NCBI GenBank assembly: GCA_016432445.1
Contig: CP066689.1
Span: 1,050,001-1,082,000, forward strand
Length of the DNA: 32,000 bases
Reading direction: 5' to 3'
Source: Candidatus Saccharimonadota bacterium
GTDB taxonomy: Bacteria > Patescibacteriota > Microgenomatia > UBA1406 > GWC2-37-13
A model generated the notes under the pieces. That model was not told where the DNA came from, made no database searches, and was given only the letters and a program-made list of their open reading frames with translations. The position numbers were made by a program, and so were the translations under genes. Of the stretch, positions 5,696-25,001 are shown piece after piece; within the stretch, counting starts at the first letter, position 1, and every line of letters starts with the position of its first letter.

Positions 5696-6736
5696 TTACC
5701 GACCAAGTCCCATCAATCTTTTAATTTCTTTAATCTTTTGGCTTGATTTCTCAAGGGAAAAATCCCGTCCTTCATTTAAGACTTTATTCAAATAACCTTC
5801 ATCTTTTTTTATTACTTGATACTTTTCCTGAATTTTTTTAAGAGATCCCACCACAACTTCGGCTAAATCGGATTTAAACTGACCATAGCCTATTCCTTGG
5901 TATTGTTTCTCAATTTCTTCAACCGGTTTTCCCGACAGACGTGAATAAATCACTAAAAGGTTTGAGATGGCAGGTTTATCTTCTTTAAAAACCACCTCAG
6001 AACCTGAGTCAGTCACAGCTTTCTTAATTTTTTCTCTTATCTCATCAGGAGTATTCAAAATATTAATTGTTCCTAAAGGATCTTTATCCGACTTACTCAT
6101 TTTGCTTAAAGGATTTTGCAGACTCATAATCCGCGCCGCATCCCGATCAACTCTGGTCTCAGGAAGTACAAAGATCTCACCAAACTGCTTATTAAACTTT
6201 TCAGCAATATCCCGGGTTAACTCTACATGCTGTCTTTGATCTTCTCCTACCGGCACTACATTAGTATCATAGAGAAGAATATCAGCAGCCATAAGCGCTG
6301 GATAGTTAAAAAGGCCGACAGGCCCTTCAAACAAAGCCCGGGCTTCAGCCAATGAAGAAAGATTATCAGCCTTTATAAATTTTTGTGCTTTTTCTTTAAA
6401 CTGGGTCATCCGAAAGAGCTGTCCCATATTTAAAAAACAATCAAAAATCCAGGCCAGATACGTATGATCTGGGTTTTCAGATTGAATAAAAAGTTTTGAT
6501 TTATTAGGATCAATTCCTCCTGCCAAATATAGAGCAGACAACTCAAGATTTTTTTCTCTTAATACCTTTGGATCCTGAAAAACAGTAATGGCATGAAGAT
6601 CAACCACACAAAATATTAAATCACTAAACTCTCCGCTTTCCTGAAGATTAACAGATTGACGAATCATCCCGATATAATTACCGACGTGAAGATCACCTGA
6701 TGGCTGAATACCGGAAAATATAGTTTTTTTTACCAT
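5696..6736 (-). CDS. trpS: tryptophanyl-tRNA synthetase
   Basis: IQPSGDLHVGNYIG (HIGH-type) and KMSKSD (KMSKS) are present. The ATG at 6736 lies 5 nt after the tyrS stop. The ORF-track start at 6754 is a TTG inside tyrS. Confidence 0.9.
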   Translation of the reverse strand: MVKKTIFSGIQPSGDLHVGNYIGMIRQSVNLQESGEFSDLIFCVVDLHAITVFQDPKVLREKNLELSALYLAGGIDPNKSKLFIQSENPDHTYLAWIFDCFLNMGQLFRMTQFKEKAQKFIKADNLSSLAEARALFEGPVGLFNYPALMAADILLYDTNVVPVGEDQRQHVELTRDIAEKFNKQFGEIFVLPETRVDRDAARIMSLQNPLSKMSKSDKDPLGTINILNTPDEIREKIKKAVTDSGSEVVFKEDKPAISNLLVIYSRLSGKPVEEIEKQYQGIGYGQFKSDLAEVVVGSLKKIQEKYQVIKKDEGYLNKVLNEGRDFSLEKSSQKIKEIKRLMGLGR

Positions 6737-9185: not shown

Positions 9186-11150
9186 ATGAACTCGAAGATT
9201 AAAGACCTCTGCAAACTGCTTCGATATGATGTTATAACCTCAACCACTGCCGCCGGTTCTGGACACCCTACAACCTGTCTTTCCGCTATAGAACTCATGG
9301 GAACATTATTTTTTAAAGGCTTTTTCCATTTTGATCCTGACCATCATGAAAGTATTCTTAACGACCGTATTATTTTTTCTAAAGGCCATGCTGCTCCCCT
9401 ACTTTATGCGTTATACCATGCAGCTGGATTAATAAGCCAAGATGATATTTTAAGTTTGCGTAAATTTGACTCTGTTTTTGAAGGACATCCTACTCCGAGA
9501 TTTAAGTACGTTGATGTTTCCACTGGTTCTCTAGGTCAAGGATTGTCAATAGGCGTGGGAATGGCATTAGGAATAAAAACCAAAATCCAAATGTCAAATG
9601 TCAAAATTAAAAGAGAACCTAAGGTATGGGTATTGATAGGAGACTCAGAAATAGCTGAAGGACAGGTTTGGGAAGCTATGGAAATAGCCTCACATTACAA
9701 ACTTAACAATCTGGTTGCCATACTTGATGTTAACCGTTTAGGTCAAAGAGGAGAAACAATGCTTGGATGGGATCTTAAAACTTATGAAAAACGAGCTCAA
9801 GCTTTTGGCTGGGAAACAATTGTTATCAAAGACGGCCATGATATTGAGGAAATAAAAAACGCATATCATCATGTCGACGAACGCCCAACGACGAACGCAA
9901 AACCCACAATGATCATCGCAAAAACCATAAAAGGCAAAGGCGTTTCCTTTCTTGAAAACAAAGATAACTGGCACGGTAAACCAGTACCTAAGGATAGATT
10001 AGAGGAAGCTTTAAAAGAATTGAGTAAAGTTAACCTTAAGGTAAGAGGAACAGTAACCAAACCAAAATTAGTTAAGGGTTTAGAGTTAAGGGTTTTGGGT
10101 AAAACTCAAAACTCTCAACCCTCAACCATAAACTATAAACCTGGAGCAATGGTTGCCACCCGTGAAGCTTATGGCGATGCTCTTGTTACATTAGGAGAAA
10201 AAAATCCCAACTTAGTAGTACTTGACGCTGAAACCTCAAACTCAACCTACGCTGATAAATTTAAAAATAATTTTCCTGAAAGATACTTTGAGATGTATAT
10301 TGCCGAACAAAATATGATCTCAGTCGCTTTAGGATTTTCTAAATTAGGATTTATTCCTTTTATCTCCAGTTTTGCCGCTTTTTTAACCCGATCTTTTGAT
10401 CAAATACGTATGGCTCAATACTCAAACGGCAATGTAAAAATATGCGGATCACATGCTGGGGTATCAATTGGCTCAGATGGTCCTTCGCAAATGGCATTGG
10501 AAGATATATCAATGATGAGAAGCATACTAGAAAGCACTGTTTTTTACCCATCAGATGCTGTTTCCGCTTATAATCTGGTTTATCAAAGTATGAGTACATC
10601 TTCTCTTACTTACATCCGCACCACTCGGGAAAAAACGCCCATTTTATATAGCTCTCAAGAAAAGTTTACTGTTGGTGGATCAAAAATTTTAAAACAAAGC
10701 AAAAATGATGATGCGGTTATTTTTACTGCCGGAATCACAGTCCATGAATCTCTTAAAGCTTACGAGGAACTAAAAAAAGAAGGAATTAATGTTTGCGTTG
10801 TTGATCTTTACTCCATCAAACCAATTGATTCGTTAACCATCCACAATCTAGTAGGGACAGGTCGCGACCTGTCCCTACCTAAAATCAATAACGTCATTGT
10901 TGTTGAGGATCATTACCCATATGGTGGCCTCGGCGAAGCCGTAATGTCGCAGATCAAAGATCTAACATCGAAGATCTCCTTCACTCACCTGGCTGTCAAT
11001 AAAATCCCCCGTTCAGGCACACCCGAAGAACTTTTAGCCTACGAAAAAATTAATGCCGCTGCTATCGTTAAAATATGTAAGGGCGTATTGCAATACGCCC
11101 CTACCTCACTCAAAAAAACCGTAACGGCAAAGGAACAACTTACCGCTTAA
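9186..11150 (+). CDS. tkt: transketolase, N- and C-terminal halves fused
   Basis: The N half has GSGHPTTCLS, GDSEIAEGQVWEA and WHGKP. The C half has ATREAYGDAL, EQNMISVA and HAGVSIGSDGPSQ. It contains six repeat-derived in-frame segments (see repeats). Its 3' end overlaps the convergent ATPase by 11 nt. Confidence 0.9.
   Translation: MNSKIKDLCKLLRYDVITSTTAAGSGHPTTCLSAIELMGTLFFKGFFHFDPDHHESILNDRIIFSKGHAAPLLYALYHAAGLISQDDILSLRKFDSVFEGHPTPRFKYVDVSTGSLGQGLSIGVGMALGIKTKIQMSNVKIKREPKVWVLIGDSEIAEGQVWEAMEIASHYKLNNLVAILDVNRLGQRGETMLGWDLKTYEKRAQAFGWETIVIKDGHDIEEIKNAYHHVDERPTTNAKPTMIIAKTIKGKGVSFLENKDNWHGKPVPKDRLEEALKELSKVNLKVRGTVTKPKLVKGLELRVLGKTQNSQPSTINYKPGAMVATREAYGDALVTLGEKNPNLVVLDAETSNSTYADKFKNNFPERYFEMYIAEQNMISVALGFSKLGFIPFISSFAAFLTRSFDQIRMAQYSNGNVKICGSHAGVSIGSDGPSQMALEDISMMRSILESTVFYPSDAVSAYNLVYQSMSTSSLTYIRTTREKTPILYSSQEKFTVGGSKILKQSKNDDAVIFTAGITVHESLKAYEELKKEGINVCVVDLYSIKPIDSLTIHNLVGTGRDLSLPKINNVIVVEDHYPYGGLGEAVMSQIKDLTSKISFTHLAVNKIPRSGTPEELLAYEKINAAAIVKICKGVLQYAPTSLKKTVTAKEQLTA
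9581..9608 (+). repeat. HEP-A heptamer array, in frame in tkt
   Basis: CAAAATCCAAATGTCAAATGTCAAAATT encodes KIQMSNVKI. Confidence 0.9.
9875..9903 (+). repeat. HEP-F heptamer array (CGACGAA/CGCNNAA)n, in frame in tkt
   Basis: The units CGACGAA CGCCCAA CGACGAA CGCAAAA encode DERPTTNAK. Confidence 0.8.
10071..10140 (+). repeat. HEP-H inverted heptamer arrays (GTTNNGG)x4 / (NNNNAAC)x6, encoding the linker between the transketolase halves
   Basis: The units are GTTAAGG GTTTAGA GTTAAGG GTTTTGG GTAAAAC TCAAAAC TCTCAAC CCTCAAC CATAAAC TATAAAC. They are translated as VKGLELRVLGKTQNSQPSTINY. Confidence 0.8.
10851..10878. repeat. PAL28 perfect copy, in frame in tkt
   Basis: The same 28-mer, translated as VGTGRDLSL. 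Confidence 0.95.
10950..10978 (+). repeat. HEP-C degenerate array, in frame in tkt
   Basis: CAGATCAAAGATCTAACATCGAAGATCTC encodes QIKDLTSKI, to be compared with KIQDLRSKI in LeuRS. Confidence 0.7.
11077..11104. repeat. PAL28 variant GTAAGGGCGTATTGCAATACGCCCCTAC at the 3' end of tkt
   Basis: Same length and same GTA.GG/CC.TAC ends as the perfect copies. The core differs but is perfectly self-complementary (GGGCGTATTG/CAATACGCCC). Translated as KGVLQYAP. Confidence 0.8.
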
Positions 11151-13650
11151 TGATCTTTTTTATCAAACCTATTCCGGGTAGAACTAACATTGTCACTATA
11201 AGGAGTTCTAAAAATAATGGTGTAGTTATCATCTCAACTTTAAAAAGTTTAGATAAACTTGGTATATTCACAATCATAAACTGATTAACAATAGGAATTG
11301 CAAATGCTATCAAAAATGCTTTTGAAAGAAAGCTTTTAACATGTTTATTAATAGAACGGTGAGATAACCAAAGATCAACAAAAACAAAAGACTGAATCAT
11401 GGCCAGCACTGAAAAAGCAGCAGTTTTACCAACGTCTTCTCCGTTTGATTTAAATAAAAAATAAGAGACCATCACCAAAGATGTTGCTAAAAAAGCAACT
11501 AGAATAATATATCGTTTATCAAAATTATTAAAAAGACTCAATTTTTTTTCCGGAGGTTTATTCATTAAATGATCTTCACGGGGTGAAAATGCCAAAGCTA
11601 AAGCAGGGATTCCATCACTGATGAAATTTATATAAAGTATTTGGACAGCGCTAAAGAAAGCAGGCACACCCAAGATAAGTCCAGTCATAAGCGCTAAGGC
11701 TTCTGTAGCATTGGTTGATAATAAATATTTAATAGAGTTTTTAAGATTCTTTACAATATTCCTGCCTTCCTCAACCGCACTAATAATGGTTGCAAAATTA
11801 TCATCCATAATCACAATATCAGAAGTCTCACGAGCTACATCAGTACCTACCTTCCCCATAGATATTCCAACATCCGCCTGCTTTAATGCAATCGCATCAT
11901 TAACACCGTCTCCTGTTACAGCCACTATCTCTCCTAATTTTTGATACAAAGATACAATTCGGCTTTTATGAAGAGGTGTTGTGCGGGCAAATATTTTTAC
12001 TTTAGGCAGTTTTTCTAATAATTCCTCGTCCGTATAACTCTCTATTTGCTTTCCTGTTAAAATCAGATCGCCTTCTTTAATAATGTTCACGGCTACTCCA
12101 ACTGCCTCAGCTGTTTTTTCATTATCGCCGGTTATAATCACAACTTTAATACCGGCGCGATAGGCTTTTTCCACTGCTCCTTTTACCTCAGGTCTTGGAG
12201 GATCGTGGATGGCGACCATACCGATGAATATTTGATCTTCGATCTTAGATCTTAGATCTTGGTATGAAAACGCGATAACCCTGTAGCCTTTTTTCGTCCA
12301 ATGATCCAGTGTTTTCTCGACTTCATGTCTTCTTTCTTGGGTAAACTCCACCTCTTTTCCCGCGATCAAAATTTTTCCGCATTTCTCCAAAATAGCCTCC
12401 GGAGCTCCTTTAATAAACATTATTTCTTTATTATCTTTTTTTACCACCACACTCATTGTCTTGGTTAAAATATCAAATGAACCTTCTTTTATAAACTGCC
12501 ATTCTGTTCTTAATTCTTCAGGATCTATACCAAAATGCTCTCTGGCAAAAAGCAGTAAAGAACCTTCTGTTGGATCACCCAAAACTTCCCAGGAATTATG
12601 ATCATGAACATAAACTAAAGAAGCCGTGGAACATAAAATTCCATTAGTGATTAATTTTTTAAGCGAAGGATTATCATGCGGAATTGACTGATGATCTTCA
12701 AATATCTTTCCGTCGGTTAAAATTTCCTTTATTCTCATATCGTTACTAGTTAAGGTACCGGTTTTATCTGTCGCAATAAGAGTTATATTGCCTATAGCTT
12801 CAATTGCCTCAAGTCTTCTCACGACTGCCTTTTTCTTGGCCATCTCTTTTACTCCTAAAGCTAAAGTAATTGTCGTTACTGCCGGCAACCCTTCAGGTAC
12901 AATAGCTACTGCTAAAGATATCGCCAGTAAAAATGCAGGAAAGTAACCGGAGCCGTTAATAAACGATAATCCTAGAACTGCTATAGAAAAAATAATGCCG
13001 ACAACTCCGATTATTTTAAGCAAACTATTGAGCTTGCGCTGAAGAGGAGTAGAAGTTTTTTCAATTTTGGAAAGACTGTTGGCTATTTGTCCAAATCTGG
13101 TTTTCATTCCAGTTTGAGTTATCTGCGCTTGCGCCCGGCCTTTAAATATAACTGTCCCCATAAATATCTCATCACCTGCATATTTATATACAGGTATAGA
13201 CTCACCGGTTAAAGAAGCTTCATTAACCTCAAGATTAACTGCCTTAAAAACTTTAGCATCAGCCGGAATCTTCATACCTTCCTCAATGAGAATGATGTCT
13301 TTAGGCACTAAAAAACTGCTGTCAATCTCCATTTCTTTCCCATCTCTAATTACTCTTGATACTGTAACTGCCAATTTCTTTAAGGCACTTATTGCTTCCT
13401 CTGCTTTTCTTTCTTGATAAATCTTAAAGACAGCATTTAAAAAAATAATAGCTAAGATAAGTGAACCGTCAATGATTTCACTAATGAAAAATGATATGCC
13501 GGCTGCTCCAAGTAAAAGAAGAGTCAAAACATCCTTAAACTGTCTTAAAAAAATTAAGATCAGACTGTCTTTACGCGTCTCTTCAATAACATTAAGCCCA
13601 TGCGTCCTTAAAAGACGCTCCACTTCTGGTGATGAAAGACCCTTTAACAT
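11140..13650 (-). CDS. cation-transporting P-type ATPase (P2-type, Ca2+/Mg2+-like)
   Basis: Motifs present: DKTGTLT phosphorylation site, PEGLPA in TM4, TGDN, GDGVNDAIALK, and TGES in the actuator domain. I prefer the ATG at 13650 (MLKGLSSPE). The ORF-track start at 13659 is a TTG inside a repeat. Confidence 0.9.
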   Translation of the reverse strand: MLKGLSSPEVERLLRTHGLNVIEETRKDSLILIFLRQFKDVLTLLLLGAAGISFFISEIIDGSLILAIIFLNAVFKIYQERKAEEAISALKKLAVTVSRVIRDGKEMEIDSSFLVPKDIILIEEGMKIPADAKVFKAVNLEVNEASLTGESIPVYKYAGDEIFMGTVIFKGRAQAQITQTGMKTRFGQIANSLSKIEKTSTPLQRKLNSLLKIIGVVGIIFSIAVLGLSFINGSGYFPAFLLAISLAVAIVPEGLPAVTTITLALGVKEMAKKKAVVRRLEAIEAIGNITLIATDKTGTLTSNDMRIKEILTDGKIFEDHQSIPHDNPSLKKLITNGILCSTASLVYVHDHNSWEVLGDPTEGSLLLFAREHFGIDPEELRTEWQFIKEGSFDILTKTMSVVVKKDNKEIMFIKGAPEAILEKCGKILIAGKEVEFTQERRHEVEKTLDHWTKKGYRVIAFSYQDLRSKIEDQIFIGMVAIHDPPRPEVKGAVEKAYRAGIKVVIITGDNEKTAEAVGVAVNIIKEGDLILTGKQIESYTDEELLEKLPKVKIFARTTPLHKSRIVSLYQKLGEIVAVTGDGVNDAIALKQADVGISMGKVGTDVARETSDIVIMDDNFATIISAVEEGRNIVKNLKNSIKYLLSTNATEALALMTGLILGVPAFFSAVQILYINFISDGIPALALAFSPREDHLMNKPPEKKLSLFNNFDKRYIILVAFLATSLVMVSYFLFKSNGEDVGKTAAFSVLAMIQSFVFVDLWLSHRSINKHVKSFLSKAFLIAFAIPIVNQFMIVNIPSLSKLFKVEMITTPLFLELLIVTMLVLPGIGLIKKIIKR
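12233..12262 (-). repeat. HEP-C heptamer array, in frame in the P-type ATPase
   Basis: The plus strand reads TGATCTTCGATCTTAGATCTTAGATCTTGG. The sense strand encodes QDLRSKIEDQ. Confidence 0.9.
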
Positions 13651-13750
13651 AAAATTCAAATATCAAATGTCAAAAAAATAATATTCGTCATTTGATATTT
13701 GGAATTTGGATTTGATTTGACATTTGAAATTTGGATTTTGGATTTAATTG
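13651..13750. repeat. HEP-A inverted heptamer arrays between the ATPase start and the HEPN-like ORF end; contains a 50-nt unit at 13664-13713
   Basis: CAAATGTCAAAAAAATAATATTCGTCATTTGATATTTGGAATTTGGATTT matches 14272-14321 at 48/50 positions. Further ATTTGNN units follow. Confidence 0.9.
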
Positions 13751-14230
13751 AATCAGTGATTGGTGTGTCTTTTCCATTGTCTGTGTAATCTGGGTGATGA
13801 TTTTTTGTGATTCTTCAAAGCTAATGCTCTTAAGATTATGAGGAAAATAATGAAAAATTTGATTACGCCCGCCTTTCCAAGTCATCCAAATCTCCTCAGC
13901 CAATTCTTTTCCTGCATTATTGATTATTTTTTTATACAGTGATTTTTCTCCTAAACGTACCATCAAAAATGGCGAGAGCAGTTTACCTAAACGTAAGTGA
14001 TCGGAGATATAATCAAGATGAGAAATAAAACCAATATCTTTAAACAATGTTTTTAAGTAACCCTCATAAGCTTTTGCGTAAGGAAAAACTAAAAAAGAAT
14101 AATCTTTAAATTTATAAGGACAGCTGGAGATAACATTGTTGATGAGATAATCGCCTTCAAGAAGAAGATCTTTTTGATTTTGAGAAAGATAATCCCAAAA
14201 CTCATTCCTTACACTATTTTTCGTATCCAT
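13688..14230 (-). CDS. HEPN-like protein (RN-x3-H motif), no partner gene
   Basis: GGRNQIFHYF has the spacing of the DUF86/HepT-type RNxxxH catalytic motif, in a predicted all-helical ~180-aa protein. It has its own TTGACA-17-TATATA promoter. The last ~20 codons are read from heptamer repeats. The family call is tentative. Confidence 0.45.
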   Translation of the reverse strand: MDTKNSVRNEFWDYLSQNQKDLLLEGDYLINNVISSCPYKFKDYSFLVFPYAKAYEGYLKTLFKDIGFISHLDYISDHLRLGKLLSPFLMVRLGEKSLYKKIINNAGKELAEEIWMTWKGGRNQIFHYFPHNLKSISFEESQKIITQITQTMEKTHQSLIQLNPKSKFQMSNQIQIPNIK

Positions 14231-14236
14231 TGAAAC

Positions 14237-14265
14237 ATTATATACGAAAATTAAATCCAAATGTC
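14237..14265 (-). promoter_or_regulatory. promoter TTGACA-17-TATATAAT for the HEPN-like ORF, with the -35 supplied by a HEP-A heptamer
   Basis: The minus strand reads TTGACA-TTTGGATTTAATTTTCG-TATATAAT-GTTTCA-ATG. Confidence 0.5.
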
Positions 14266-14328
14266 AAAATCCAAATGTCAAAAAAATAATATTTGTCATT
14301 TGATATTTGAAATTTGGATTTTGGATTT
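14253..14328. repeat. HEP-A inverted heptamer arrays between the HEPN-like ORF start and the rplA stop; contains a 50-nt unit at 14272-14321
   Basis: This is a direct repeat of 13664-13713 with 2 mismatches. Its minus strand supplies the TTGACA of the HEPN-like promoter. Confidence 0.9.
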
Positions 14329-14332
14329 TACT

Positions 14333-15118
14333 TTATATTTGTTCAATATTTAACCTTAGAGAGGGGCTCATGGTTGTTTTGACGAAAGCTCCAAGAATAT
14401 GATTTCTGCCTACTGACTTTAAGAAAGCGCTAATATTTTTATCTAGCTCTTTTTCCTCAGATGATATCTTACCTATCATCTGGTGAATTAAAGGAAATTT
14501 AGGTTCTGTTTTCCAACGGGTTACACCTTTGGAAAATTTTTTCACCAATTCTTCAGGATTAGGTGAGATTGTGCCGGCTTTAGGATTGGGCATTAAGCCT
14601 TTCGGACCTAATACTTTAGCAAATTTGGCGAGCTTTGGCATGAAAGATGGATGGGTCACTAAAACATCAAAATTCATATTTCCTTTTTCCAGTTCTGACA
14701 AAAGATCATCGCTTACAACAGCTACTCTAACGCTTTTTCCGATTGAAAAAGGAAGCTCTGCCTCACCTCTTAAACCGGTTTTATCAACGTTTAAATGTAC
14801 CTCAACGGATTCATCAAACTTTGCATATTTGATTTTCTTCAGATTAGATATCGCTTCAGGAATAGAATATGTTTTTTTTGTATCAATGGCTTTTTTGGCC
14901 GTTGAGTATTTCTTTCCCCGCTGACGGACTTGAGTTTTAGCTTGCCTTTTTCCCGTTTTTTTTACTTTAACCTCGGTAGGTTTTGTCTCTTCCTTCTCTT
15001 GGCTAACTACAACTTTAGTGGAAGTAGCTTTTTTTTGTACAGATTTTTCTTTCTGTTCTTTTTTTTGTTTTTTTTCTTCTTCTTCTAAACCTAAAGTTCT
15101 AGTTCTGATTTTTCCCAT
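14333..15118 (-). CDS. rplA: 50S ribosomal protein L1 with ~60-aa Lys/Glu-rich N-terminal extension
   Basis: The L1 core is recognisable: KKYSTAKKAID...YSIPEAI, GKSVRVAVV, NFDVLVTHP, LGPKGLMPNPKAGT. I chose the ATG at 15118 because the sequence upstream of it is the same 69-nt block that precedes the rplK ATG. Confidence 0.9.
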   Translation of the reverse strand: MGKIRTRTLGLEEEEKKQKKEQKEKSVQKKATSTKVVVSQEKEETKPTEVKVKKTGKRQAKTQVRQRGKKYSTAKKAIDTKKTYSIPEAISNLKKIKYAKFDESVEVHLNVDKTGLRGEAELPFSIGKSVRVAVVSDDLLSELEKGNMNFDVLVTHPSFMPKLAKFAKVLGPKGLMPNPKAGTISPNPEELVKKFSKGVTRWKTEPKFPLIHQMIGKISSEEKELDKNISAFLKSVGRNHILGAFVKTTMSPSLRLNIEQI

Positions 15119-15119
15119 A

Positions 15120-15188
15120 TTTTTATTGAGATTCAAGATTCAGGATTCAAGAATTTATTCGTAAATCGTGAATCGTAAATCATGAATC
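15120..15188. repeat. HEP-D 69-nt block (GATTCAR)x3, spacer, (NTRAATC)x4, abutting the rplA start
   Basis: 68/69 identical to 15628-15696. It ends 1-2 nt from the rplA ATG (15118). Confidence 0.95.
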
Positions 15189-15198
15189 GTAACTTATA

Positions 15199-15624
15199 TT
15201 AATTTTCAACATCAATCCCCATTGATCTTGCGGTGCCGGCCACTATCTTCATAGCGCCGTCAACATCTTGCGTGTTTAGATCATTTATTTTTTCTTTAGC
15301 AATTTCCTCAACCTGAAATTTTGTTAGTTTTCCAACCTTCTCCGTGTTTGGCTTTCCTGAACCTTTTTGCAAACCGATTTTCTTCTTAATCATGGCTGCA
15401 ACTGGAGGAAGTTTGGTAATAAAAGTAAAGCTTCTGTCTTCATAAACAGTAATAACTGCAGGAATTATCTGGCCTTTAAGCTTGGCTGTGTAAGCATTAT
15501 ATTCTTTAATAAAATCCATGATCGGCACCCCATGTTGACCTAAAGCTGGTCCAACTGGAGGAGCTGGCGTTGCCTCCCCTGCCGGCAGATTAAGTTTTAA
15601 GATTGTTTTAACTTTTTTAGCCAT
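15199..15624 (-). CDS. rplK: 50S ribosomal protein L11
   Basis: [24 protein letters not shown] and the C-terminal GTARSMG are canonical L11 sequences. Confidence 0.95.
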
Positions 15625-15627
15625 ATA

Positions 15628-15696
15628 TTTTTATTGAGATTCAAGATTCAGGATTCAAGAATTTATTCGTAAATCGTGAATCATAAATCATGAATC
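15628..15696. repeat. HEP-D 69-nt block abutting the rplK start
   Basis: 68/69 identical to 15120-15188. It ends 3 nt from the rplK ATG (15624). Confidence 0.95.
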
Positions 15697-15701
15697 AAGA
15701 T

Positions 15702-16286
15702 TTATAACTTTGCTACTTGCAAAAAATCTAACTCTACAGGAGTTTCACGATCGAAAATCGAGACTAACACTTTTACCTTGCCTCGTCCTTCATCAATAGA
15801 TTCAATTGTGCCCAAGAAATCGGCAAACGGACCTTCGGTGATCTTCACTGCCTCGCCGACTGAGAATTTCGCTTTAAATTTAGGCTGTTCCTGCTGGACA
15901 AATCTCATAATGGCTTCTACTTCTTTTTCTGAGATAGGTGTTGGTTTAAGACCAGCACCGACAAAACCTGTCACACCCTCAGTAGTACGGACAACAAGCC
16001 ATGATTCATCATTAAGAATCATTTTTACTAAGACATAGCCGGGAAAGACTTTTTCAGTAGCTTTAGATTTTTTTCCTTTTTTAACAACCACTATCTCACG
16101 AGTAGGAATAATAATATCAAATATCTTATCTTCAACACTTAAGCTCTTAACTCTTTGTTCAAGAGCATGTTTAACACGGGCCTCGTAACCTGTCTGCACG
16201 TGAATAACATACCATTTGGCAGAATCCGAAGCTGAAGACGTTGTTTCAGACTGTTTCGACTGTTTTGTTTCTTCTGTCACTGTCAT
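15702..16286 (-). CDS. nusG: transcription termination/antitermination factor NusG
   Basis: NGN domain KWYVIHVQTGYE...PGYVLV and KOW motif FSVGEAVKITEGPFADFLGTI. Synteny is secE-nusG-rplK-rplA. Confidence 0.95.
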   Translation of the reverse strand: MTVTEETKQSKQSETTSSASDSAKWYVIHVQTGYEARVKHALEQRVKSLSVEDKIFDIIIPTREIVVVKKGKKSKATEKVFPGYVLVKMILNDESWLVVRTTEGVTGFVGAGLKPTPISEKEVEAIMRFVQQEQPKFKAKFSVGEAVKITEGPFADFLGTIESIDEGRGKVKVLVSIFDRETPVELDFLQVAKL

Positions 16287-16323
16287 AAGTTATTAAAAAA
16301 GATTTACACGGATAAAAAGCGGA

Positions 16324-16518
16324 TTACTTAGTAATCAAACTCAAAGCTTTCGCCAGTAAAATGTCTATTATACCTATATATAATCCAATTATCAAGGATA
16401 TTGCGATAACTATAATAGTCAATCTTATGGTCTCACCTCTTGAAGGCCAAGTTACTTTTTTAAGCTCATTTATTAAGTCAGAGGCAAAATTTGATCGCGA
16501 TTGTATTCTTTTATCCAT
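16324..16518 (-). CDS. secE: preprotein translocase subunit SecE
   Basis: ELKKVTWPSRGET followed by a single TM helix, positioned upstream of nusG. The ATG at 16518 lies 6 nt after TGTTATAAT (an extended -10). The longer ORF-track start runs into repeats. Confidence 0.8.
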   Translation of the reverse strand: MDKRIQSRSNFASDLINELKKVTWPSRGETIRLTIIVIAISLIIGLYIGIIDILLAKALSLITK

Positions 16519-16524
16519 CCAGTA

Positions 16525-16533
16525 ATTATAACA
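16525..16533 (-). promoter_or_regulatory. extended -10 TGTTATAAT, 6 nt upstream of the secE ATG
   Basis: The minus strand reads TGTTATAAT-TACTGG-ATG. There is no good -35, which is consistent with an extended -10 promoter. Confidence 0.45.
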
Positions 16534-16550
16534 AAAAAAACAAGAAATTA

Positions 16551-16615
16551 ATTGATTCACGATTTATGATTAATGATTCATGAATCGTGAATCTTGAATC
16601 ATTAATCAATGATCA
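16551..16615. repeat. HEP-D related array (ATGATTC/GTGAATC/TTGAATC units) in the secE / 16635 divergent spacer
   Basis: ATTGATTCACGATTTATGATTAATGATTCATGAATCGTGAATCTTGAATCATTAATCAATGATC is built from the same unit vocabulary as HEP-D. Confidence 0.75.
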
Positions 16616-16621
16616 ATAATA

Positions 16622-16627
16622 TATACT
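16622..16627 (+). promoter_or_regulatory. -10 box TATACT, 7 nt upstream of the ATG at 16635
   Basis: TATACT-AAATAAT-ATG. Confidence 0.35.
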
Positions 16628-16634
16628 AAATAAT

Positions 16635-17258
16635 ATGTATACAGAAATACTGCATTCAATCCTTATCACCGCTGCGCTGGCTCTCTCCTTTCTGATAAGC
16701 AAAACCTCTTTGGCAGTCTATGATTTACAAATAAGCGCCTTCCTTTTTATTGTCTTTTTTATAGGAAAAAAGTGGCTGGATAAAGGTCAGCATAAACTAA
16801 TAGAGTCGCTTGTTTTTGCTTTTATTATCAACATGATTGTCAGCACAACAGGAGCGGCTCAATCGCCTTATTTTTTCCTTTATTATTTTCTTTTGTTCTC
16901 ATTAAGTCTTTTTTTGGAACCCGTTATTGCCATTACAGCCACTATTGCTGTAATTTTCTTCTCTCTATTGTCTTTATCTCAGATACAAACTCTCGACCAG
17001 GTCTTGCCAATTTTATCGCTTGCCTTAATTACGCCATTTGCTCTTTTTTTGGGAGAAGAACATATCAAAAACCAAATTTCAAATGTCAAATTACAAAATT
17101 TGGAAAAAGACAGTTACTTTTTTCTTTCTTTAGTATTAAAAAATCACATCAATAATATTAACCAAGCGGCAGAAAATTTTTTAGGCGACCGCGAGCTTGA
17201 AGAAATCAAAAAAAATGTCAAAAGAATCAAGAAATTGATTGAAGAATATGAGAAATAG
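16635..17258 (+). CDS. polytopic membrane protein, function unknown
   Basis: About five hydrophobic helices followed by a charged C-terminal coil. A heptamer insertion encodes ISNVKLQ at the TM/coil boundary. TATACT lies 7 nt upstream of the ATG. Confidence 0.5.
   Translation: MYTEILHSILITAALALSFLISKTSLAVYDLQISAFLFIVFFIGKKWLDKGQHKLIESLVFAFIINMIVSTTGAAQSPYFFLYYFLLFSLSLFLEPVIAITATIAVIFFSLLSLSQIQTLDQVLPILSLALITPFALFLGEEHIKNQISNVKLQNLEKDSYFFLSLVLKNHINNINQAAENFLGDRELEEIKKNVKRIKKLIEEYEK
17072..17103 (+). repeat. HEP-A array, in frame in the membrane ORF 16635-17258
   Basis: CCAAATTTCAAATGTCAAATTACAAAATTTGG encodes QISNVKLQNL. Confidence 0.85.
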
Positions 17259-17266
17259 ATATAAAC

Positions 17267-17360
17267 TCAAATGTCAAATGTCAAATGTCAAATGTCAAAA
17301 CTTTAGATTTCTTTTAGCATTGGGAATACTTTTGATATTTGGAATTTGGATTTTGAAATT
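17267..17360. repeat. HEP-A hairpin-type element: (AAATGTC)x4, spacer, (ATTTGRA)n
   Basis: There are four perfect AAATGTC units at 17269-17296. The opposing arm TTTGATATTTGGAATTTGGATTTTGAAATT lies at 17331-17360. The whole element is translated as the signal peptide of the downstream ORF. Confidence 0.9.
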
Positions 17361-18033
17361 AAGCAAAGTGCATGCCGCCAATATGGAGTCGAGCCGATTT
17401 CGGATTCAAGGAGGAAATATCAACATTGGCGCCACTTCACCCTCATCTGCAAGCTACAATCTCTCAATGACTTTAGGTCAGACTGCAGCTGGTCAGTTTA
17501 GCCGCGACGGCTATATTGTTAAAGCCGGATTTCAGTACATTTACTCTATTATCCCTTTTAGATTTTCTATCTCGGATATCTCCATTGACCTAGGAACACT
17601 TGTCCCCAACACCCCTTCAACCGCAGCCACTACTCTTACAGTCTCATTTGGCAGTGCCGGCCAGTATCAAGTTACGGCAGTAGAACTGGGCACCTTAAAA
17701 ACCCTAAGCGATAATTCAATTGATGATACCGTTTGTAATGGAGGAGGATCAGCTTGCAGTGAATCAAGCTCCAATCTCTGGACATCAAGCTCGGCTTATG
17801 GTTTTGGCTATAATATGAGCGGTAATGATGTGCCGTCAGACTTTCTCAGCTCTGACTATTATCGCCCTTTTCCTGACAGTACTGTTGCGGAAAGTCCTGC
17901 TGTGGTCATGTCAAATGCTGATGTCGGAAGTAACCGCCAGTCAACCGTCACCTTTAAAACTAATATCTCGACCATACAGCCTGCCGGATCTTATCAGACT
18001 ATTATCAATTTTGTAGCCACACCATCATTTTAA
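17278..18033 (+). CDS. secreted beta-rich surface protein, paralog of the C-terminal domain of 22518-23987
   Basis: It has a signal-peptide-like N-terminus (MSNVKCQNFRFLLALGILLIFGIWILKLSKVHA). It shares ...C.G....C.ES.S..WT..S.YG.GY... and a terminal QPAGSY....F.AT.SF with the 489-aa paralog. The start is uncertain: 17239 TTG, 17248 ATG or 17278 ATG. Confidence 0.55.
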   Translation: MSNVKCQNFRFLLALGILLIFGIWILKLSKVHAANMESSRFRIQGGNINIGATSPSSASYNLSMTLGQTAAGQFSRDGYIVKAGFQYIYSIIPFRFSISDISIDLGTLVPNTPSTAATTLTVSFGSAGQYQVTAVELGTLKTLSDNSIDDTVCNGGGSACSESSSNLWTSSSAYGFGYNMSGNDVPSDFLSSDYYRPFPDSTVAESPAVVMSNADVGSNRQSTVTFKTNISTIQPAGSYQTIINFVATPSF

Positions 18034-18035
18034 TA

Positions 18036-19028
18036 ATGAAAAATATAATAATTATAATTGTTATAACGGTTATAGCGGTTATACAAGCGACTGAAGCGAG
18101 GGCACAACAGGTTTCTCTTTCTATCTCTCCTCCGCTTTTAGAGGTAGCTATAAAACCCGGAAAATCAATACTTATTGCTTATACATTAAGAAACTATGGC
18201 GATCCAACTATTCTTAAAGCCCGTATCCTTCCTTTTGAACCTTTAGGCAGTACCGGCAATATAAAGATAAAAAATGAACTTGAAGGACCAATTCAGTTTT
18301 TTTTAGATAATGCCGATTTTAATCTGGGTCAGCCGTTTTTTTTAAAAAGCGCTGATTCTCAACAGCTCCTTTTGAGAATAAAAGCAGCCGAAGGTACGCC
18401 TGAAGGAGATTACTATTACACACTTCTTAATGAGACTGAACCTTCAGCCGGACTGTCTGGAGTGAGCTTATCTCAGGCTAAAGCAACACTAGGCTCTAAT
18501 ATTTTAATTACCGTTACTGAATCAGGAAAAATTGACATTCAGGGTAAAATTTCCCTGTTTGATGTTATCTCGCGATACTCTTTTTCCTTTTTTGGACGTC
18601 AGCTAAAGTTATTTGACAGCTCCGATCTTATCCCGGTCACTATTCAAGTTGAAAACCGGGGTAAAAACTTTATTAAACCTGAAGGACAAATTGAGTTAAG
18701 AGGCAACTTCGGAGAAAAAGCCGAGTACTCTATTATTCCAAAAAATATTTTAAGCGAGTCTCAAAGGCTTCTTTCAGCTACGCCCTCAGCAGCTTTAGAC
18801 TGCGAAGATAAAAAAAATAATAAGCTTTGCAAAAGTCCTGTCTCTTTACTTATCTCCGGTTTTTTCATTGGCAGTTATAAACTTTCAACGACTGTAAGTT
18901 TTGGTGATGGTTCACCTAATCTTTATGCCTCAGCCTCATTTATTGCTCTACCTTTAAAACTCATTCTCGGAGTTTTGACCACTTTTATTCTCGGCTTTTT
19001 TCTCATTATTAAAATGAGAAAATCTTAA
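18036..19028 (+). CDS. signal-anchored Ig-like/chaperone-like protein (DUF916-like), C-terminal TM anchor
   Basis: It has a signal peptide ending IQATEARAQ, a beta-sandwich-like pattern (ISPPLLEVAIKPGKS..., EGDYYYTLL) and a C-terminal TM plus KMRKS. It is a paralog of 23994-25001. The DUF916 resemblance is from memory of the family pattern. Confidence 0.5.
   Translation: MKNIIIIIVITVIAVIQATEARAQQVSLSISPPLLEVAIKPGKSILIAYTLRNYGDPTILKARILPFEPLGSTGNIKIKNELEGPIQFFLDNADFNLGQPFFLKSADSQQLLLRIKAAEGTPEGDYYYTLLNETEPSAGLSGVSLSQAKATLGSNILITVTESGKIDIQGKISLFDVISRYSFSFFGRQLKLFDSSDLIPVTIQVENRGKNFIKPEGQIELRGNFGEKAEYSIIPKNILSESQRLLSATPSAALDCEDKKNNKLCKSPVSLLISGFFIGSYKLSTTVSFGDGSPNLYASASFIALPLKLILGVLTTFILGFFLIIKMRKS
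18047..18084 (+). repeat. NON-E 9-nt array encoding a signal-peptide core
   Basis: TTATAATTG TTATAACGG TTATAGCGG TTATACA is translated as IIIVITVIAVIQ. Confidence 0.8.
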
Positions 19029-20585: not shown

Positions 20586-21521
20586 ATGGATAAACCTCCG
20601 GTTACTAAAAGAATTGTCCTTATAACCTTAGTCCTATCCCTTATTGTAATAACCGTCATCTTCATTTCAAATTTTTTTGACACGCGGACAAAAATTGTCT
20701 TTTGTGATGTGGGACAAGGAGACGGAGCCTATATCAGAGTAAAAAATAAGATTGATATTGTCATAGACGCCGGACCCGGCAAAAAGGTACTTAACTGCTT
20801 AGGCAAGCACATGCCTTTTTTTGACAAAGAGATTGAGATTGCCATAATAACCCATCCTCAAACTGACCATTATGGAGGTTTTTTGCCAATGCTTGAAAGA
20901 TACAAAATTAATACGTTCGTAATAGACTCATTTGATACTCCTAACTCGTCTTTCAAGGAATTATTGCAAAAAATAAAAGAAAAAAAATCTAGGATATCTG
21001 CTTTTTTTCAAAATGATGAGATCAACTTGGGTGAATCTAGGATAATTTTCCATTGGCCGCCGGCTACGAACGACGAACGACGAACGCAGAACGATCCCAA
21101 TAACTTGTCTTTAATCTTCACTTATGAAGAAAATGCCTTGCCTGCCGGTCTTCGACTCCGAGGTCGCTCAGACTCGAGGAGCAGGCAGGGTTTTAGAGTG
21201 TTGTTTACAGGAGATGCAACACCAAAGGTATTAAATAAACTGTTGAAACAACAAAACTTAAAATCTAATATTTTAAAAATTCCCCATCATGGCTCAAAGA
21301 ACGGGCTGACTAAAGAATTTTTGCAGTTAGCAGACCCCGAGCTGTCAGTGATAAGTGTTGGCAGAAAAAATGCTTATGGTCACCCTTCAAAAAACGTTAT
21401 AGACATGTTTAAAGCCCTGAAGAAAAAATATTTAAGAACAGATCAAGAAGGAGACATCGTTTTTAAAATCCAAAGTACAAATGTCAAATCATTTAGATTT
21501 TGGATTTCATTTGAAATTTGA
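20586..21521 (+). CDS. comEC: ComEC metallo-beta-lactamase domain, separate ORF with its own TM
   Basis: FCDVGQGDGAYI, ITHPQTDHYGG (HxHxDH-type), LFTGDA, KIPHHGSKNG and GHPS are present. It starts 4 nt after the stop of the preceding ORF. It contains two in-frame repeat insertions and a repeat-encoded tail. Confidence 0.8.
   Translation: MDKPPVTKRIVLITLVLSLIVITVIFISNFFDTRTKIVFCDVGQGDGAYIRVKNKIDIVIDAGPGKKVLNCLGKHMPFFDKEIEIAIITHPQTDHYGGFLPMLERYKINTFVIDSFDTPNSSFKELLQKIKEKKSRISAFFQNDEINLGESRIIFHWPPATNDERRTQNDPNNLSLIFTYEENALPAGLRLRGRSDSRSRQGFRVLFTGDATPKVLNKLLKQQNLKSNILKIPHHGSKNGLTKEFLQLADPELSVISVGRKNAYGHPSKNVIDMFKALKKKYLRTDQEGDIVFKIQSTNVKSFRFWISFEI
21064..21094 (+). repeat. HEP-F heptamer array, in frame in the comEC MBL ORF
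   Basis: The units CTACGAA CGACGAA CGACGAA CGCAGAA CGA encode ATNDERRTQND. Confidence 0.8.
21136..21190. repeat. GC-rich hairpin element with ~10-bp terminal inverted repeats, in frame in the comEC MBL ORF
   Basis: CCTTGCCTGC...GCAGGCAGGG flank an internal GACTCCGAGG/GACTCGAGGA duplication. It is translated as ALPAGLRLRGRSDSRSRQG and sits just before the conserved LFTGDA strand. Confidence 0.75.
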
Positions 21522-21538
21522 AATTTGACATTTGGATT
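21465..21538. repeat. HEP-A hairpin at the convergent junction comEC-MBL / PaaX-like
   Basis: CAAATGTCAAAT (21478-21489) pairs perfectly with ATTTGACATTTG (21523-21534). It supplies the last codons of the MBL ORF (QSTNVKSFRFWISFEI). Confidence 0.85.
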
Positions 21539-22356
21539 TAGGAGAGAAGGATACTCTTTATCTCTCTAAATATATTGTACGCTTCAAGGCCTATCCATTT
21601 TTCGCCCACCAGATCTATTGGCAGACCGGGATCCTCACGTAAGATAATCACGTACTCGCCAATAACTTTCTTAAATTTGTCTGTTTTACTGCCTTCCTTT
21701 GCCAACGTATCATGCCATTTCTTAAAAAGATCTCTGTATCTCTTATCCAGTTGTGACAATCCCCAAACCTTCTCAATCAAAATTGCACGATCGCCAAAAA
21801 CATATTCGGCTTCAAAAGCCTGTACGTATTTTTCTTCCTCTTTTTGAGATACTAGCTCTTTAAGTGCGTCAATGATCGGATGAGGCGTTAGCCAAAAAGA
21901 TCTGTGCCAAGGACCCAAGCCCCAACCTGAGACTTCGCGTCGAAGTTTATCTCGTAGTTCTCTCTTTTTTTCCGGAATTTCATAAGACAAAATACGCCAT
22001 TTTCCATCCCACTTTTCTTTTAAAAATCTCACGAACGGAAACTCAAGAGCAAGTTTAATAAACCCCTTCTCAGTCAAACGGTATTCAGCTGCATTGTCAT
22101 CCCGACCGGAGTGGAGGCTATAGTCCTGAGCTTGCGAAGGAGATCCCTCGGCTTCACTCGGGATGACATTGGAGGAATAGTTTTTCTCAATCAATCCTTC
22201 TTTTAATAATGCTGAAAGAGTACCGCGGGTTTTTTGGTTTAAAGATAAATCAAAAGCAAGCTGTATGGGCTCTTGCAATTTGACATATGGAAAATTAACG
22301 TCTGATAGTAAAAATAGAGCAAGTAAAATTTTCGTCCGTCTTTCTTTGATTATCAT
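21538..22356 (-). CDS. PaaX-like transcriptional regulator
   Basis: An N-terminal winged-helix-like segment (TRGTLSALLKEGLIE) plus WDGKWRILSYEIPEKKRELRDKLRREVSGWGLGPWHRSFWLTPHP, which is typical of the PaaX C-terminal region. A 72-nt GC-rich element is inserted in frame between the two parts. Confidence 0.6.
   Translation of the reverse strand: MIIKERRTKILLALFLLSDVNFPYVKLQEPIQLAFDLSLNQKTRGTLSALLKEGLIEKNYSSNVIPSEAEGSPSQAQDYSLHSGRDDNAAEYRLTEKGFIKLALEFPFVRFLKEKWDGKWRILSYEIPEKKRELRDKLRREVSGWGLGPWHRSFWLTPHPIIDALKELVSQKEEEKYVQAFEAEYVFGDRAILIEKVWGLSQLDKRYRDLFKKWHDTLAKEGSKTDKFKKVIGEYVIILREDPGLPIDLVGEKWIGLEAYNIFREIKSILLS
22096..22167. repeat. GC-rich 72-nt element with perfect 10-bp terminal inverted repeats GTCATCCCGA/TCGGGATGAC, in frame in the PaaX-like gene
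   Basis: The length is exactly 24 codons, translated as VIPSEAEGSPSQAQDYSLHSGRDD. The GC content contrasts sharply with the host gene. Confidence 0.85.
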
Positions 22357-23993: not shown

Positions 23994-25001
23994 ATGAGAA
24001 ATATAATTAATCTAATTTTTATAATAGTTATAACCTTTATAACTGTTATACAGGCGACTGAAGCGAAGGCTCAAGCTACTCAAATGCTTCAGGTTGCCCC
24101 AGCGCGCCAGGAAATTACTTTAAACCCGGGTGAACAGGCCTCAATAGTAGTAAAATTTTATAATTTTAACGAAACTCCTGTCGCAGGCATTGTTAAGGTT
24201 GCTGACTTTGAAGTCACTGATTCTGACGGCACAGTCAGGATTATTGATACGGCCTCACAGGCTTCACCAAAGTTCTCTGCTTCTCAATGGTTTACTATTG
24301 CCAATGAAAAAGTCATCATTTTCCCTCAAGATAAAGTTACAGTTCAGGCGCAAATAAATGTCTCTACTGATGCTCGCCCAGGAGGAAGGTATGCGGCCGT
24401 ATATTTTGAACCCGCAGAATCTGTATCTCAGCCTGTAAACATTGGTAAAAGTGCCTCAACAGGCATTGCCTCAAGAATCGCCTCACTTATCTATATCAGA
24501 GTTCCTGGAGATACTTTTGAAAAAGCCCTAATTTCACGTTTTTTTGCTTCTTCTTTTCTTGAAAATGGACCTATTAATGTTGAGACTGAGATTCTAAACC
24601 GCGGTGATTACCACATTAGGCCAAAAGGATTTGTCAGCCTAACTGATATGTTTAGCAATGTTCAGGCTCAGGAAAAAATTAAAGAGCATAATATCTTTCC
24701 TGATGCCTCAAGAACCTATAAAAACTCTCTCGGTTCCAAATGGATGCTTGGACGCTATCGACTTGATCTTACTTCCTCTTACGGAGACAAAGCTCAGGTC
24801 ATGACCCGCTTTATTTATGTCTGGGTCTTCCCTTGGAAAATAGCCTTAGCTATAGTTTTGGCTCTCATACTGTTTATAGTCTTTGGAAAAAATATTTATA
24901 AAAAAATAGTTGTTAAAGAAGCTGTCCTTGAAGCCGAGGTTAAAAAAGAAAAAGAAGAGATAGAAGAACTGAAAAAAGAGTTGCGTAAAAAAAATGACTA
25001 A
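23994..25001 (+). CDS. signal-anchored Ig-like/chaperone-like protein (DUF916-like), paralog of 18036-19028
   Basis: The signal peptide is nearly identical to that of the paralog (IQATEAKAQ). Also present: APARQEITLNPGEQ, RPGGRYAAVYF, and a C-terminal TM followed by a K/E-rich coil. Confidence 0.5.
   Translation: MRNIINLIFIIVITFITVIQATEAKAQATQMLQVAPARQEITLNPGEQASIVVKFYNFNETPVAGIVKVADFEVTDSDGTVRIIDTASQASPKFSASQWFTIANEKVIIFPQDKVTVQAQINVSTDARPGGRYAAVYFEPAESVSQPVNIGKSASTGIASRIASLIYIRVPGDTFEKALISRFFASSFLENGPINVETEILNRGDYHIRPKGFVSLTDMFSNVQAQEKIKEHNIFPDASRTYKNSLGSKWMLGRYRLDLTSSYGDKAQVMTRFIYVWVFPWKIALAIVLALILFIVFGKNIYKKIVVKEAVLEAEVKKEKEEIEELKKELRKKND
24021..24052 (+). repeat. NON-E 9-nt array encoding a signal-peptide core
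   Basis: ATAATAGTTATAACCTTTATAACTGTTATACA is translated as IIVITFITVIQ. Confidence 0.8.

Follow-up and report, generated by a model that had tools for sequence, protein, structure and literature searches.

What are the tandem seven-nucleotide repeats that recur in genes and spacers alike across a 32,000-nt stretch of contig CP066689.1 (GenBank assembly GCA_016432445.1, positions 1,050,001 to 1,082,000; this whole stretch is hereafter the window)? A preliminary description of the letters had sorted them into five heptamer families, HEP-A, HEP-C, HEP-D, HEP-F and HEP-H, all of which we found where they had been placed. Our favored answer, to which we assign a probability of roughly 55%, is that they are small dispersed non-coding repeat elements, of the general kind represented by MITEs (miniature inverted-repeat transposable elements), repetitive extragenic palindromic (REP) sequences and Rickettsia palindromic elements (RPEs), with arms built from heptamer arrays, each element copied as a unit and tolerated where it lies in a spacer or a protein loop.

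Relatives were recruited by a NusG protein search, which gave 80 genome loci and 80 metagenome loci (160 related loci, given L numbers where they must be told apart), all of them 20-kb fragments of draft metagenome genomes; lineage statistics were drawn from 128 non-redundant loci totalling 1.59 Mb. NusG identity ranged from 70 to 89%, and many records were titled Candidatus Roizmanbacteria or Microgenomates. By its sequence affinities, the window itself comes from a Roizmanbacteria-like genome of the Candidate Phyla Radiation (CPR). The closest metagenome relative by NusG was 89% identical and none was at strain level, so close pairs among the relatives were compared instead. An exact-match query with the L11 protein gave nothing. 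The gene order secE-nusG-rplK-rplA was kept in the 160 related loci, and Pfam genes identified in the window comprised leuS, an RRM protein, trpS, tyrS, transketolase, a P-type ATPase, an RnlA/HEPN-like open reading frame (ORF), rplA, rplK, nusG, secE, comEA, comEC and others. Within the window, ARAGORN detected no tRNA and Rfam searches at gathering thresholds returned no match.

The proposal that a 7-nt period is the common architecture held well, period 7 being the sole strongly enriched tandem period in the window and the dominant one in the relatives. In a sliding test requiring 12 of 14 matches at lag k, with runs of 1-3-nt units left out, lag 7 yielded 20 arrays in the window, as opposed to 0-4 at other lags from 4 to 13 and 15 at the harmonic lag 14. 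With a stricter version, lag 7 still gave 10 arrays, whereas the remaining non-harmonic lags, and likewise 100 third-order Markov shuffles of the window, gave none. Tandem Repeats Finder reported about 30 period-7 rows across it. Matches to three consecutive CAAATNN units with at most one mismatch numbered 39 (0.05 expected), and those to three GATTCAN units with at most three mismatches numbered 17 (0.02 expected). The excess, which had been put forward as the test of the idea, was also present in the relatives, where we counted 380 period-7 arrays and where periods 5-12 gave 12-143 each; density varied between related genomes from 0 to 2 arrays per kb. Positions outside long ORFs, a fraction making up approximately 16% of the sequence, accommodated 236 of the 380, and approximately 38% were genic. 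Heptamer hairpins occupy 9 of the window's approximately 27 gene junctions (counted from the ORF list and the arrays), including rplA-rplK, rplK-nusG and the divergent spacer adjoining secE.

Whole elements had been duplicated elsewhere within a genome, and at orthologous sites they were there in some relatives and missing in others. Three orthologous spacers, nusG-rplK, rplK-rplA and secE-nusG, fell into two classes, being either 4-30 nt long or holding a 70-260-nt element, which was usually a heptamer hairpin and sometimes a GC-rich REP-like palindrome or a period-9 array. For example, in L024 and L115, the flanks of which are ~90-95% identical, a ~130-nt hairpin between secE and nusG and another of ~145 nt elsewhere in L024 corresponded to 5-10 nt in L115 (filled 9863-10012 versus empty 4159-4170, and 6103-6250 versus 604-607). 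Within genomes, 9 of 92 element pairs were at least 90% identical over 67-125 nt while lying 0.4-6.3 kb apart, and the best identity between genomes was 86% (n = 247). Loops and short flanks traveled with the arrays, as seen in the window for two HEP-A copies that have their loop in common (13651 and 14248) and for two HEP-D copies that are nearly identical, including the leader up to the ATG (15126 and 15634). We also observed nested insertions in two spacers of one operon in L026 (9638-10000 and 11068-11304), where the loop of a heptamer hairpin held a GC-richer element of 150-200 nt, oriented oppositely at the two sites.

These observations bear on the possibility that the arrays are ordinary long simple sequence repeats (SSRs), made and resized in place by polymerase slippage as at contingency-type loci, with opposed arrangements arising via local inversion or chance. 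Such an origin would fit the abundance of heptanucleotides, described as the most abundant long SSR class in many bacteria with slippage as the proposed cause (as summarized in PMC4679880 and PMC4692102), and also the different unit numbers among copies of one family (window copies at 13651, 14248 and 17263) and the single unpaired arrays that occur in genes. However, when close relatives (0.1-7% divergence) were compared, 44 of 46 aligned arrays were identical, none of the 46 differed by a 7-nt unit, and none of 47 indels was a multiple of 7 inside an array. Additionally, arrays were copied along with their loops and flanks, presence or absence concerned whole elements, and the 55:3 arm polarity detailed below is not expected from random inversion. 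In-place slippage thus seems to us very unlikely. The comparison of slippage with transposition that the preliminary description had recommended was, as far as the data reach, answered in one part by elements that appear, disappear and are copied whole, whereas the expansion and contraction by units that it had also envisaged was not seen.

The arrays of the window are as follows.

3812-3846, minus strand: single HEP-A array inside leuS, sense strand of the TCAAATG type, translated EFQISNVKCQMR.
4504-4540, minus strand: HEP-C array (AAGATCT) in the leuS editing-domain loop, translated SKIQDLRSKIFD.
9581-9608, plus strand: HEP-A array inside transketolase (tkt), translated QMSNVKI, in a loop of hypervariable length among orthologues.
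9875-9897, plus strand: HEP-F array (CGACGAA) inside transketolase, translated VDERPTTNA, in a variable loop.
10069-10135, plus strand: HEP-H opposed arrays (GTTAAGG... / ...ACCCTCA), a hairpin translated in frame in the transketolase inter-domain linker, detected only by an inverted-repeat scan.
12231-12263, minus strand: HEP-C array inside the P-type ATPase, translated YQDLRSKIEDQI, in a variable loop.
13651-13749, no strand: HEP-A opposed-array hairpin; it fills the spacer that separates the start of the ATPase from the end of the RnlA-like ORF.
14248-14340, no strand: HEP-A opposed-array hairpin between the RnlA-like ORF and rplA.
15126-15192, no strand: HEP-D opposed-array hairpin (GATTCAR / YRAATC) filling the rplK-rplA spacer.
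15634-15700, no strand: HEP-D opposed-array hairpin filling the nusG-rplK spacer.
16551-16617, no strand: HEP-D palindromic array in the spacer from which secE and the ORF at 16635 diverge.
17066-17098, plus strand: HEP-A array inside the hypothetical membrane ORF 16635-17258, translated QISNVKLQN.
17263-17360, no strand: HEP-A opposed arrays after the stop codon of ORF 16635-17258, with four perfect CAAATGT units, a 30-nt loop and then ATTTGGA-type units.
21063-21093, plus strand: HEP-F array (ACGAACG) in the ComEC C-terminal metallo-beta-lactamase ORF, translated ATNDERRTQND, in a variable loop.
21466-21543, no strand: HEP-A opposed arrays across the convergent gene ends 21521 and 21538.
25877-25974, no strand: HEP-A opposed-array hairpin at a convergent gene boundary (-29.9 kcal/mol, z = -5.4).
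26683-26799, no strand: HEP-A opposed-array hairpin in a 620-nt divergent spacer (-26.3 kcal/mol, z = -5.8).
27443-27476, plus strand: HEP-A array inside an integrase-N-terminal-like ORF, translated KISNVKFQMSSA.

The longer copies in the window consist of an A-rich array, a loop and a T-rich array. More generally, a full element measured 70-130 nt and comprised an (AAAWNYY)n array, a loop and an (RRNWTTT)n array, the opposed arms being 20-40 nt each; termini are exemplified by AAATCCAAA and TTTGGATTT in L043 and by ATAATTTTCAA and TTGAAAATTAT in L123. Unit sequences differed from genome to genome, and the form AAAWNYY, a profile partly shaped by how units were rotated and oriented, was common to all. 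The units comprised 53% A, 25% T and 9% G, and the phased AAA(T)/(A)TTT core was constant across species while the other unit positions varied. Based on array-pair logic, which was used for these statistics (the inverted-repeat scan missed the HEP-D copies), 96 of 156 adjacent array pairs were inverted. Among those 96 the arms ran A-rich then T-rich in 55 cases, T-rich then A-rich in 3, and were neutral in 38, a polarity that, the structure being an inverted repeat, reads identically from either strand.

The two arms of an element pair, and they do so loosely. Predicted RNA folding of the window hairpins gave -17 to -30 kcal/mol, with z from -2 to -5.8 relative to dinucleotide shuffles. The arms were 77% complementary in the best register and 70% complementary after a shift of 7 or 14 nt, which makes the structure a pair of opposed arrays from a single unit family and not a palindrome or mirror copies. 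The earlier picture of an array followed by its approximate reverse complement, forming imperfect hairpins, was therefore upheld for the opposed layout and the folding but not for true mirror-image arms. Permuting the order of units changed the folding energy from -20.5 to -19.6 kcal/mol (p = 0.004), a cost of only 0.9 kcal/mol. One register pairs almost as well as another, which makes hairpin potential a generic by-product wherever two arrays of similar units face each other. Fixed polarity is not predicted by pairing alone.

Genic copies were subject to a further regularity. As had been proposed, the arrays translate into peptides with a 7-aa period (seen in leuS, in tkt and in the hypothetical membrane ORF), and the sense strand was the A-rich strand in all four fully genic HEP-A copies. 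The arrays coincided with loops that vary among orthologues in both length and sequence, specifically residues 265-277 and 497-508 of LeuRS, 135-141 and 230-238 of transketolase, 466-477 of the P-type ATPase and 160-170 of ComEC. The leuS HEP-A array (3812-3846) amounts to an 8-aa insertion relative to two orthologues, and the array at 17066-17098 left the length of its ORF unchanged relative to orthologues. In relatives, the same protein loops carried other translated repeat elements, and in the L021 transketolase a complete hairpin (-30.6 kcal/mol), of the same family as the element in the L021 nusG-rplK spacer, was read through in frame.

The orientation bias of genic copies follows from the avoidance of stop codons, since the complement of CAAATGT carries TGA. 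The unit itself has no stop trinucleotide in any phase, and three 7-nt units suffice to pass through every frame. Across the lineage, reversing a genic array where it lies would introduce an in-frame stop in 99 of 143 cases, and arrays with the A-rich strand as sense outnumbered those with the T-rich strand as sense (87 versus 53, p = 0.005). The filtering by stop codons that had been suggested from the window alone was hence recovered in its relatives, the two orientations being unequal. The HEP-C unit AAGATCT carries TAA; in the leuS copy the one position at which TAA would be in frame reads CAA, and in the ATPase copy both such positions read CAA or GAA, so that the genic HEP-C copies show the stop-codon filter in action.

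Do the spacer copies serve a purpose at the RNA level? One proposal would have them as selected RNA hairpins, acting as bidirectional intrinsic terminators or as mRNA-protecting 3' stem-loops like REP sequences in E. coli operons. The predicted energies and z values given above fit this, as does the A-rich-5', U-rich-3' arrangement on both strands, which is the layout of a bidirectional terminator, and for the two HEP-D hairpins the transcribed strand folds better than its complement (-20.2 versus -18.8 and -20.0 versus -17.0 kcal/mol). Selection on the transcribed strand, which the latter values had suggested, was rejected as a general feature, since in 57 co-directional spacers the sense RNA folded better in 24 and the antisense RNA in 33 (p = 0.97). 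Hairpins were placed in co-directional, convergent and divergent spacers in proportions of 69%, 17% and 14%, against a background of 65%, 18% and 17%, without the enrichment at convergent gene ends that terminators call for. The stems are AT-rich blocks of 3-5 bp rather than the GC-rich stem with a U tract, enriched at operon ends, by which intrinsic terminators are recognized, and no element in the scanned stretch 12500-18500 was called terminator-like; promoter-like consensus matches in that stretch were at shuffle level. Moreover, elements occur within the rplK-rplA operon and are missing from the same junctions in many relatives. Finally, a four-species alignment showed invariant AAAT/ATTT blocks that pair and weak covariation (5 pairs were compensated, 12 were disrupted in one or more sequences, and the covariation term was positive). 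We accordingly give selected RNA hairpins low odds. On the predicted energies, hairpins probably do exist in mRNA or single-stranded DNA, and they may act incidentally as intercistronic stem-loops, a role for which nothing here shows selection.

A second functional proposal, which we rate as unlikely, is that the elements are cis-acting binding arrays, in which a protein with a ~7-nt footprint (a cold-shock protein, ribosomal protein S1 or an RRM protein) coats phased A/T-tract units and thereby controls the translation or stability of neighboring genes, as has been proposed for TAACTGA repeats (PMC4679880). It would account for the phased AAA(T)/(A)TTT core being the constant feature across species and for the fact that exact pairing is seemingly not maintained, the arms pairing almost equally in any register. 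Elements also abut stop and start codons, the HEP-D copies having the same leader to the ATG of rplA and rplK, and an RRM-domain gene is located in the window at 5309-5596. However, short spacers alone would put elements near stop and start codons, many relatives have 4-30-nt spacers lacking an element at the same junctions, so that no conserved regulatory need is visible, and placement matches background spacer classes with no strand preference relative to transcription. Same-site elements across species were 66-78% alike, compared with 71 ± 5% for random non-orthologous elements. An apparent conservation of orthologous elements (61-78% identity, with four-fold degenerate sites at 22-52%) was dismissed on the same grounds, as a low-complexity artefact, random non-orthologous hairpins aligning at 71 ± 5%.

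Some features adjoining the spacer copies deserve mention in their own right. On the minus strand, the HEP-D leaders of rplA and rplK (15120-15136 and 15625-15641) have the same A/U-rich TCAATAAAAAT(AT) up to the ATG, with no Shine-Dalgarno-like sequence visible in these leaders, and the HEP-D element may supply the translation-initiation region of rplA and rplK. The rplA gene (14333-15136) encodes an L1 protein with a ~70-aa Lys/Glu-rich N-terminal extension (MGKIRTRTLGLEEEEKKQKKEQKEK...) common to the relatives; in several of these the tblastn match missed the extension, which then falls within the computed rplK-rplA 'spacer'. ORF 13688-14260 has weak RnlA-toxin/HEPN matches, both below the Pfam cut-off, and is syntenic beside rplA in most relatives; it is therefore a gene conserved in the lineage and not a mobile toxin cassette, despite the HEP-A hairpins that flank it on both sides.

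Returning to elements copied as units, we envision that they would persist where harm is small, in very short intergenic spacers and in length-variable surface loops, as their positions and sequences suggest, and that in protein loops only the stop-free orientation, or variants with an in-frame stop mutated away, would survive. The 7-nt unit may derive from a general bacterial preference for heptanucleotide repeats, attributed to slippage (as summarized in PMC4679880 and PMC4692102). Slippage would then represent the past building of arrays and not an ongoing process, the arrays not being unstable now. Transposition, and not recombination or gene conversion, would be the means of movement; the terminal inverted repeats of a mobile element would produce such a fixed arm polarity, which, together with the lack of a visible target-site duplication, would suit a duplication-free transposase, for example one acting on single-stranded hairpins.

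Several points weigh against this reading. No target-site duplication was visible at four copy pairs, where flanks are AT-rich and of low complexity, and, within the 20-kb fragments, opposed arrays 0.4-4 kb apart enclosed only housekeeping genes, with no autonomous parent element or transposase among them, so that mobility is deduced from copy identity and presence or absence. Many near-identical copies occupy adjacent spacers (15126 and 15634 in the window; L043; L032), and local gene conversion could be an alternative source of these. Consensus metagenome assemblies collapse population variation, and low-level slippage could have been missed. The slightly better folding of the natural unit order leaves room for some selection, or shared ancestry, for pairing. 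Lastly, the AAAWNYY form and fixed polarity across many species could stem from a conserved function, for instance that of a binding protein, or from some generative process that they have in common.

One version of the latter, which we consider a long shot, holds that the opposed arrays were left behind by a process that adds repeats in a fixed direction and are not ordinary transposon ends. The A-rich strand runs 5' to 3' towards the center in both arms, as if two telomere-like ends had been joined head to head, or as if two 3' ends at a break had each been extended independently by reiterative synthesis and then ligated. It would explain arms that are of the same family without being mirror images (77% versus 70%), the 55:3 polarity, and units that are genome-specific with constant period and polarity. 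The 'convergent' GGGAATC pairs of Xanthomonas may have the same inward layout, and the process, if true, would provide a common mechanism for heptamer arrays in unrelated bacteria.

How do the elements of this lineage compare with known repeats? The preliminary description had named the short tandemly repeated repetitive (STRR) sequences of heterocystous cyanobacteria as the closest parallel, but the GGGAATC repeats of Xanthomonas, with 70-75 convergent inverted pairs of arrays per genome (Rehm et al. 2015, PMC4692102), are closer. After these come heptanucleotide long SSRs, TAACTGA repeats and, as regards in-frame insertion, RPEs. The Xanthomonas GGGAATC and Nostoc GGGGAYT repeats resemble the elements herein in being genome-wide tandem heptamers with intergenic enrichment and varying repeat number (PMC4692102), and our 96 inverted pairs correspond to their paired convergent arrays on opposite strands. 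In Xanthomonas the arrays are opposed with fixed polarity, purine-rich strand first, although the paper is silent on which strand runs inward (PMC4692102). In contrast, the Xanthomonas and Nostoc units are G-tract-based and form G-quadruplexes, whereas ours are A-tract-based without G runs (GGGAATC x2 and GGGGATT x2 were both absent from the window and the 160 loci); there is one unit family per genome there and several here; those repeats are under-represented in ORFs, and approximately 38% of ours are genic; and the hosts are Proteobacteria and Cyanobacteria rather than CPR bacteria.

The STRR sequences (Calothrix, Nostoc), as portrayed in PMC4692102, are likewise tandem heptanucleotides of several families and mainly intergenic, features matched by the five families in the window and the 236 of 380 arrays outside ORFs. 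They are described there as direct arrays in Cyanobacteria, unlike the opposed pairs in Roizmanbacteria or Microgenomates. In our data, two tandem copies of CCCCAGT and of TTGGTCA were absent from the window and the 160 loci, and CAACAGT x2 occurred once. These three are reportedly the STRR unit sequences. Among long SSRs, heptanucleotides form the class that is most abundant in many bacteria (Mrazek 2007, as cited in PMC4679880), and the preferred 7-nt unit and arrays longer than chance are found here too, with head-to-tail 7-nt units above chance expectation. That class is explained, in the accounts cited, by slippage, with length expected to vary, whereas none of the 46 aligned arrays varied, within the limited power of consensus metagenome assemblies, and loops and flanks traveled along. 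TAACTGA repeats of Beggiatoaceae, Cyanobacteria and Bacteroidetes lie beside start codons and also in ORFs and ribosomal-protein operons (MacGregor 2015, PMC4679880). Like some of our elements they are heptamer arrays a few nt from start codons, ribosomal-protein operons included, with some in ORFs, but they have a single fixed unit in direct arrays with only one inverted case (PMC4679880), as opposed to several units in opposed arrays, and TAACTGA x2 was absent from the window and the 160 loci. By unit sequence and host, the elements fall outside the STRR, G-quadruplex heptamer and TAACTGA groups.

Among palindromic elements, MITEs and REP sequences or their bacterial interspersed mosaic elements (PMC3184786, PMC2229807) share with ours a short, non-coding, hairpin-forming, multi-copy and mostly intergenic nature and presence or absence between relatives. 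As in MITEs, inverted arms enclose a small non-coding body, near-identical copies are dispersed, and copies come and go between relatives; MITE arms, however, are unique terminal inverted repeats, whereas ours are internal tandem arrays, and neither a target-site duplication, at the four copy pairs inspected, nor a parent insertion sequence, in the 20-kb fragments, was found here. REP sequences are GC-rich palindromes of 20-40 nt with a REP-associated tyrosine transposase, and ours, at 70-130 nt and AT-rich, differ in size and composition. RPEs, like these elements, are small, palindromic, and both intergenic and translated in frame in tolerant protein regions. They are said, after Ogata et al. 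in 2000, to be inserted in frame in genes, and are mentioned in PMC10969869 and PMC1779305. In-frame translated palindromic repeats in conserved proteins were found here as HEP-H in transketolase and the L021 transketolase hairpin, alongside single arrays in loops of LeuRS, the ATPase and ComEC. RPEs differ in not being tandem heptamers, in their unrelated sequence families and in their alphaproteobacterial hosts, and our elements are not members of that group. Given the published heptamer SSRs, inverted pairs and repeats in ORFs, the novelty first claimed for a multi-family heptamer system that invades ORFs was overstated. New relative to these precedents are the A-tract units, several families per genome, opposed arrays of strict polarity, frequent in-frame gene invasion and the CPR host; no account of such elements in CPR bacteria was found in the literature, coverage of which was incomplete.

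Other repeats occur in the same genomes. A perfect 28-nt palindrome (GTAGGGACAGGTCG|CGACCTGTCCCTAC) was present three times in the window (3129-3156, 10851-10878 and 27239-27266), inside leuS, transketolase and the integrase-N-terminal-like ORF, in frame as VGTGRDLSLP; in transketolase it amounts to a clean insertion of 8 aa when compared with 9 of 10 orthologues. It represents a second, unrelated family of in-frame palindromic insertions. A period-9 family (TTATAAYNG) was found in the window (5274-5313, 18044-18083 and 24002-24050) and in relatives (L024 10529-10576, L027 1510-1555 and L030 6081-6128); it encodes a hydrophobic, signal-peptide-like N-terminus in two window ORFs (IIIIIVITVIAVIQA and LIFIIVITFITVIQA), and its 9-mers fill the nusG-rplK spacer in relatives. 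GC-rich REP-like palindromes (gtcattcccgc...gcgggaatgac; catcctgagcgaa...tcgaaggat) were seen in the same spacers and protein loops of relatives (L096 6072-6249 versus L106 6628-6644; L045 4093-4353; L068 1119-1287; the L081 ATPase loop) and were present or absent between 98%-identical contigs. Four consecutive CAAATNN units also occurred in more than 119 viral contigs (L161-L240 among them), giant-virus bins included, and in some of these 2-4 matches followed one another; CPR bacteria are thus not the only carriers of A-tract heptamer arrays, and the pattern is too simple to be informative. Positions 28721-32000, considered as a 3.3-kb gene-free gap of higher G+C, proved to be one stop-free frame running past the window end, as part of a very large ORF.

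CPR bacteria have genomes of ~1 Mb and very short spacers, with little room for junk. Despite this compactness, heptamer hairpins fill about one third of the junctions in the window, and the elements add peptides to essential enzymes such as LeuRS, transketolase and a P-type ATPase. Where proteins and spacers are otherwise conserved, most of their variation in length is due to these elements. Because the A-rich arms are free of stops, ORF calls become longer and acquire false 'hypothetical' N-termini, and the elements could confuse assembly and binning. The fixed polarity and the shared AAAWNYY form are regularities that could guide, together with the Xanthomonas pairs, the search for whatever generates or moves the arrays.

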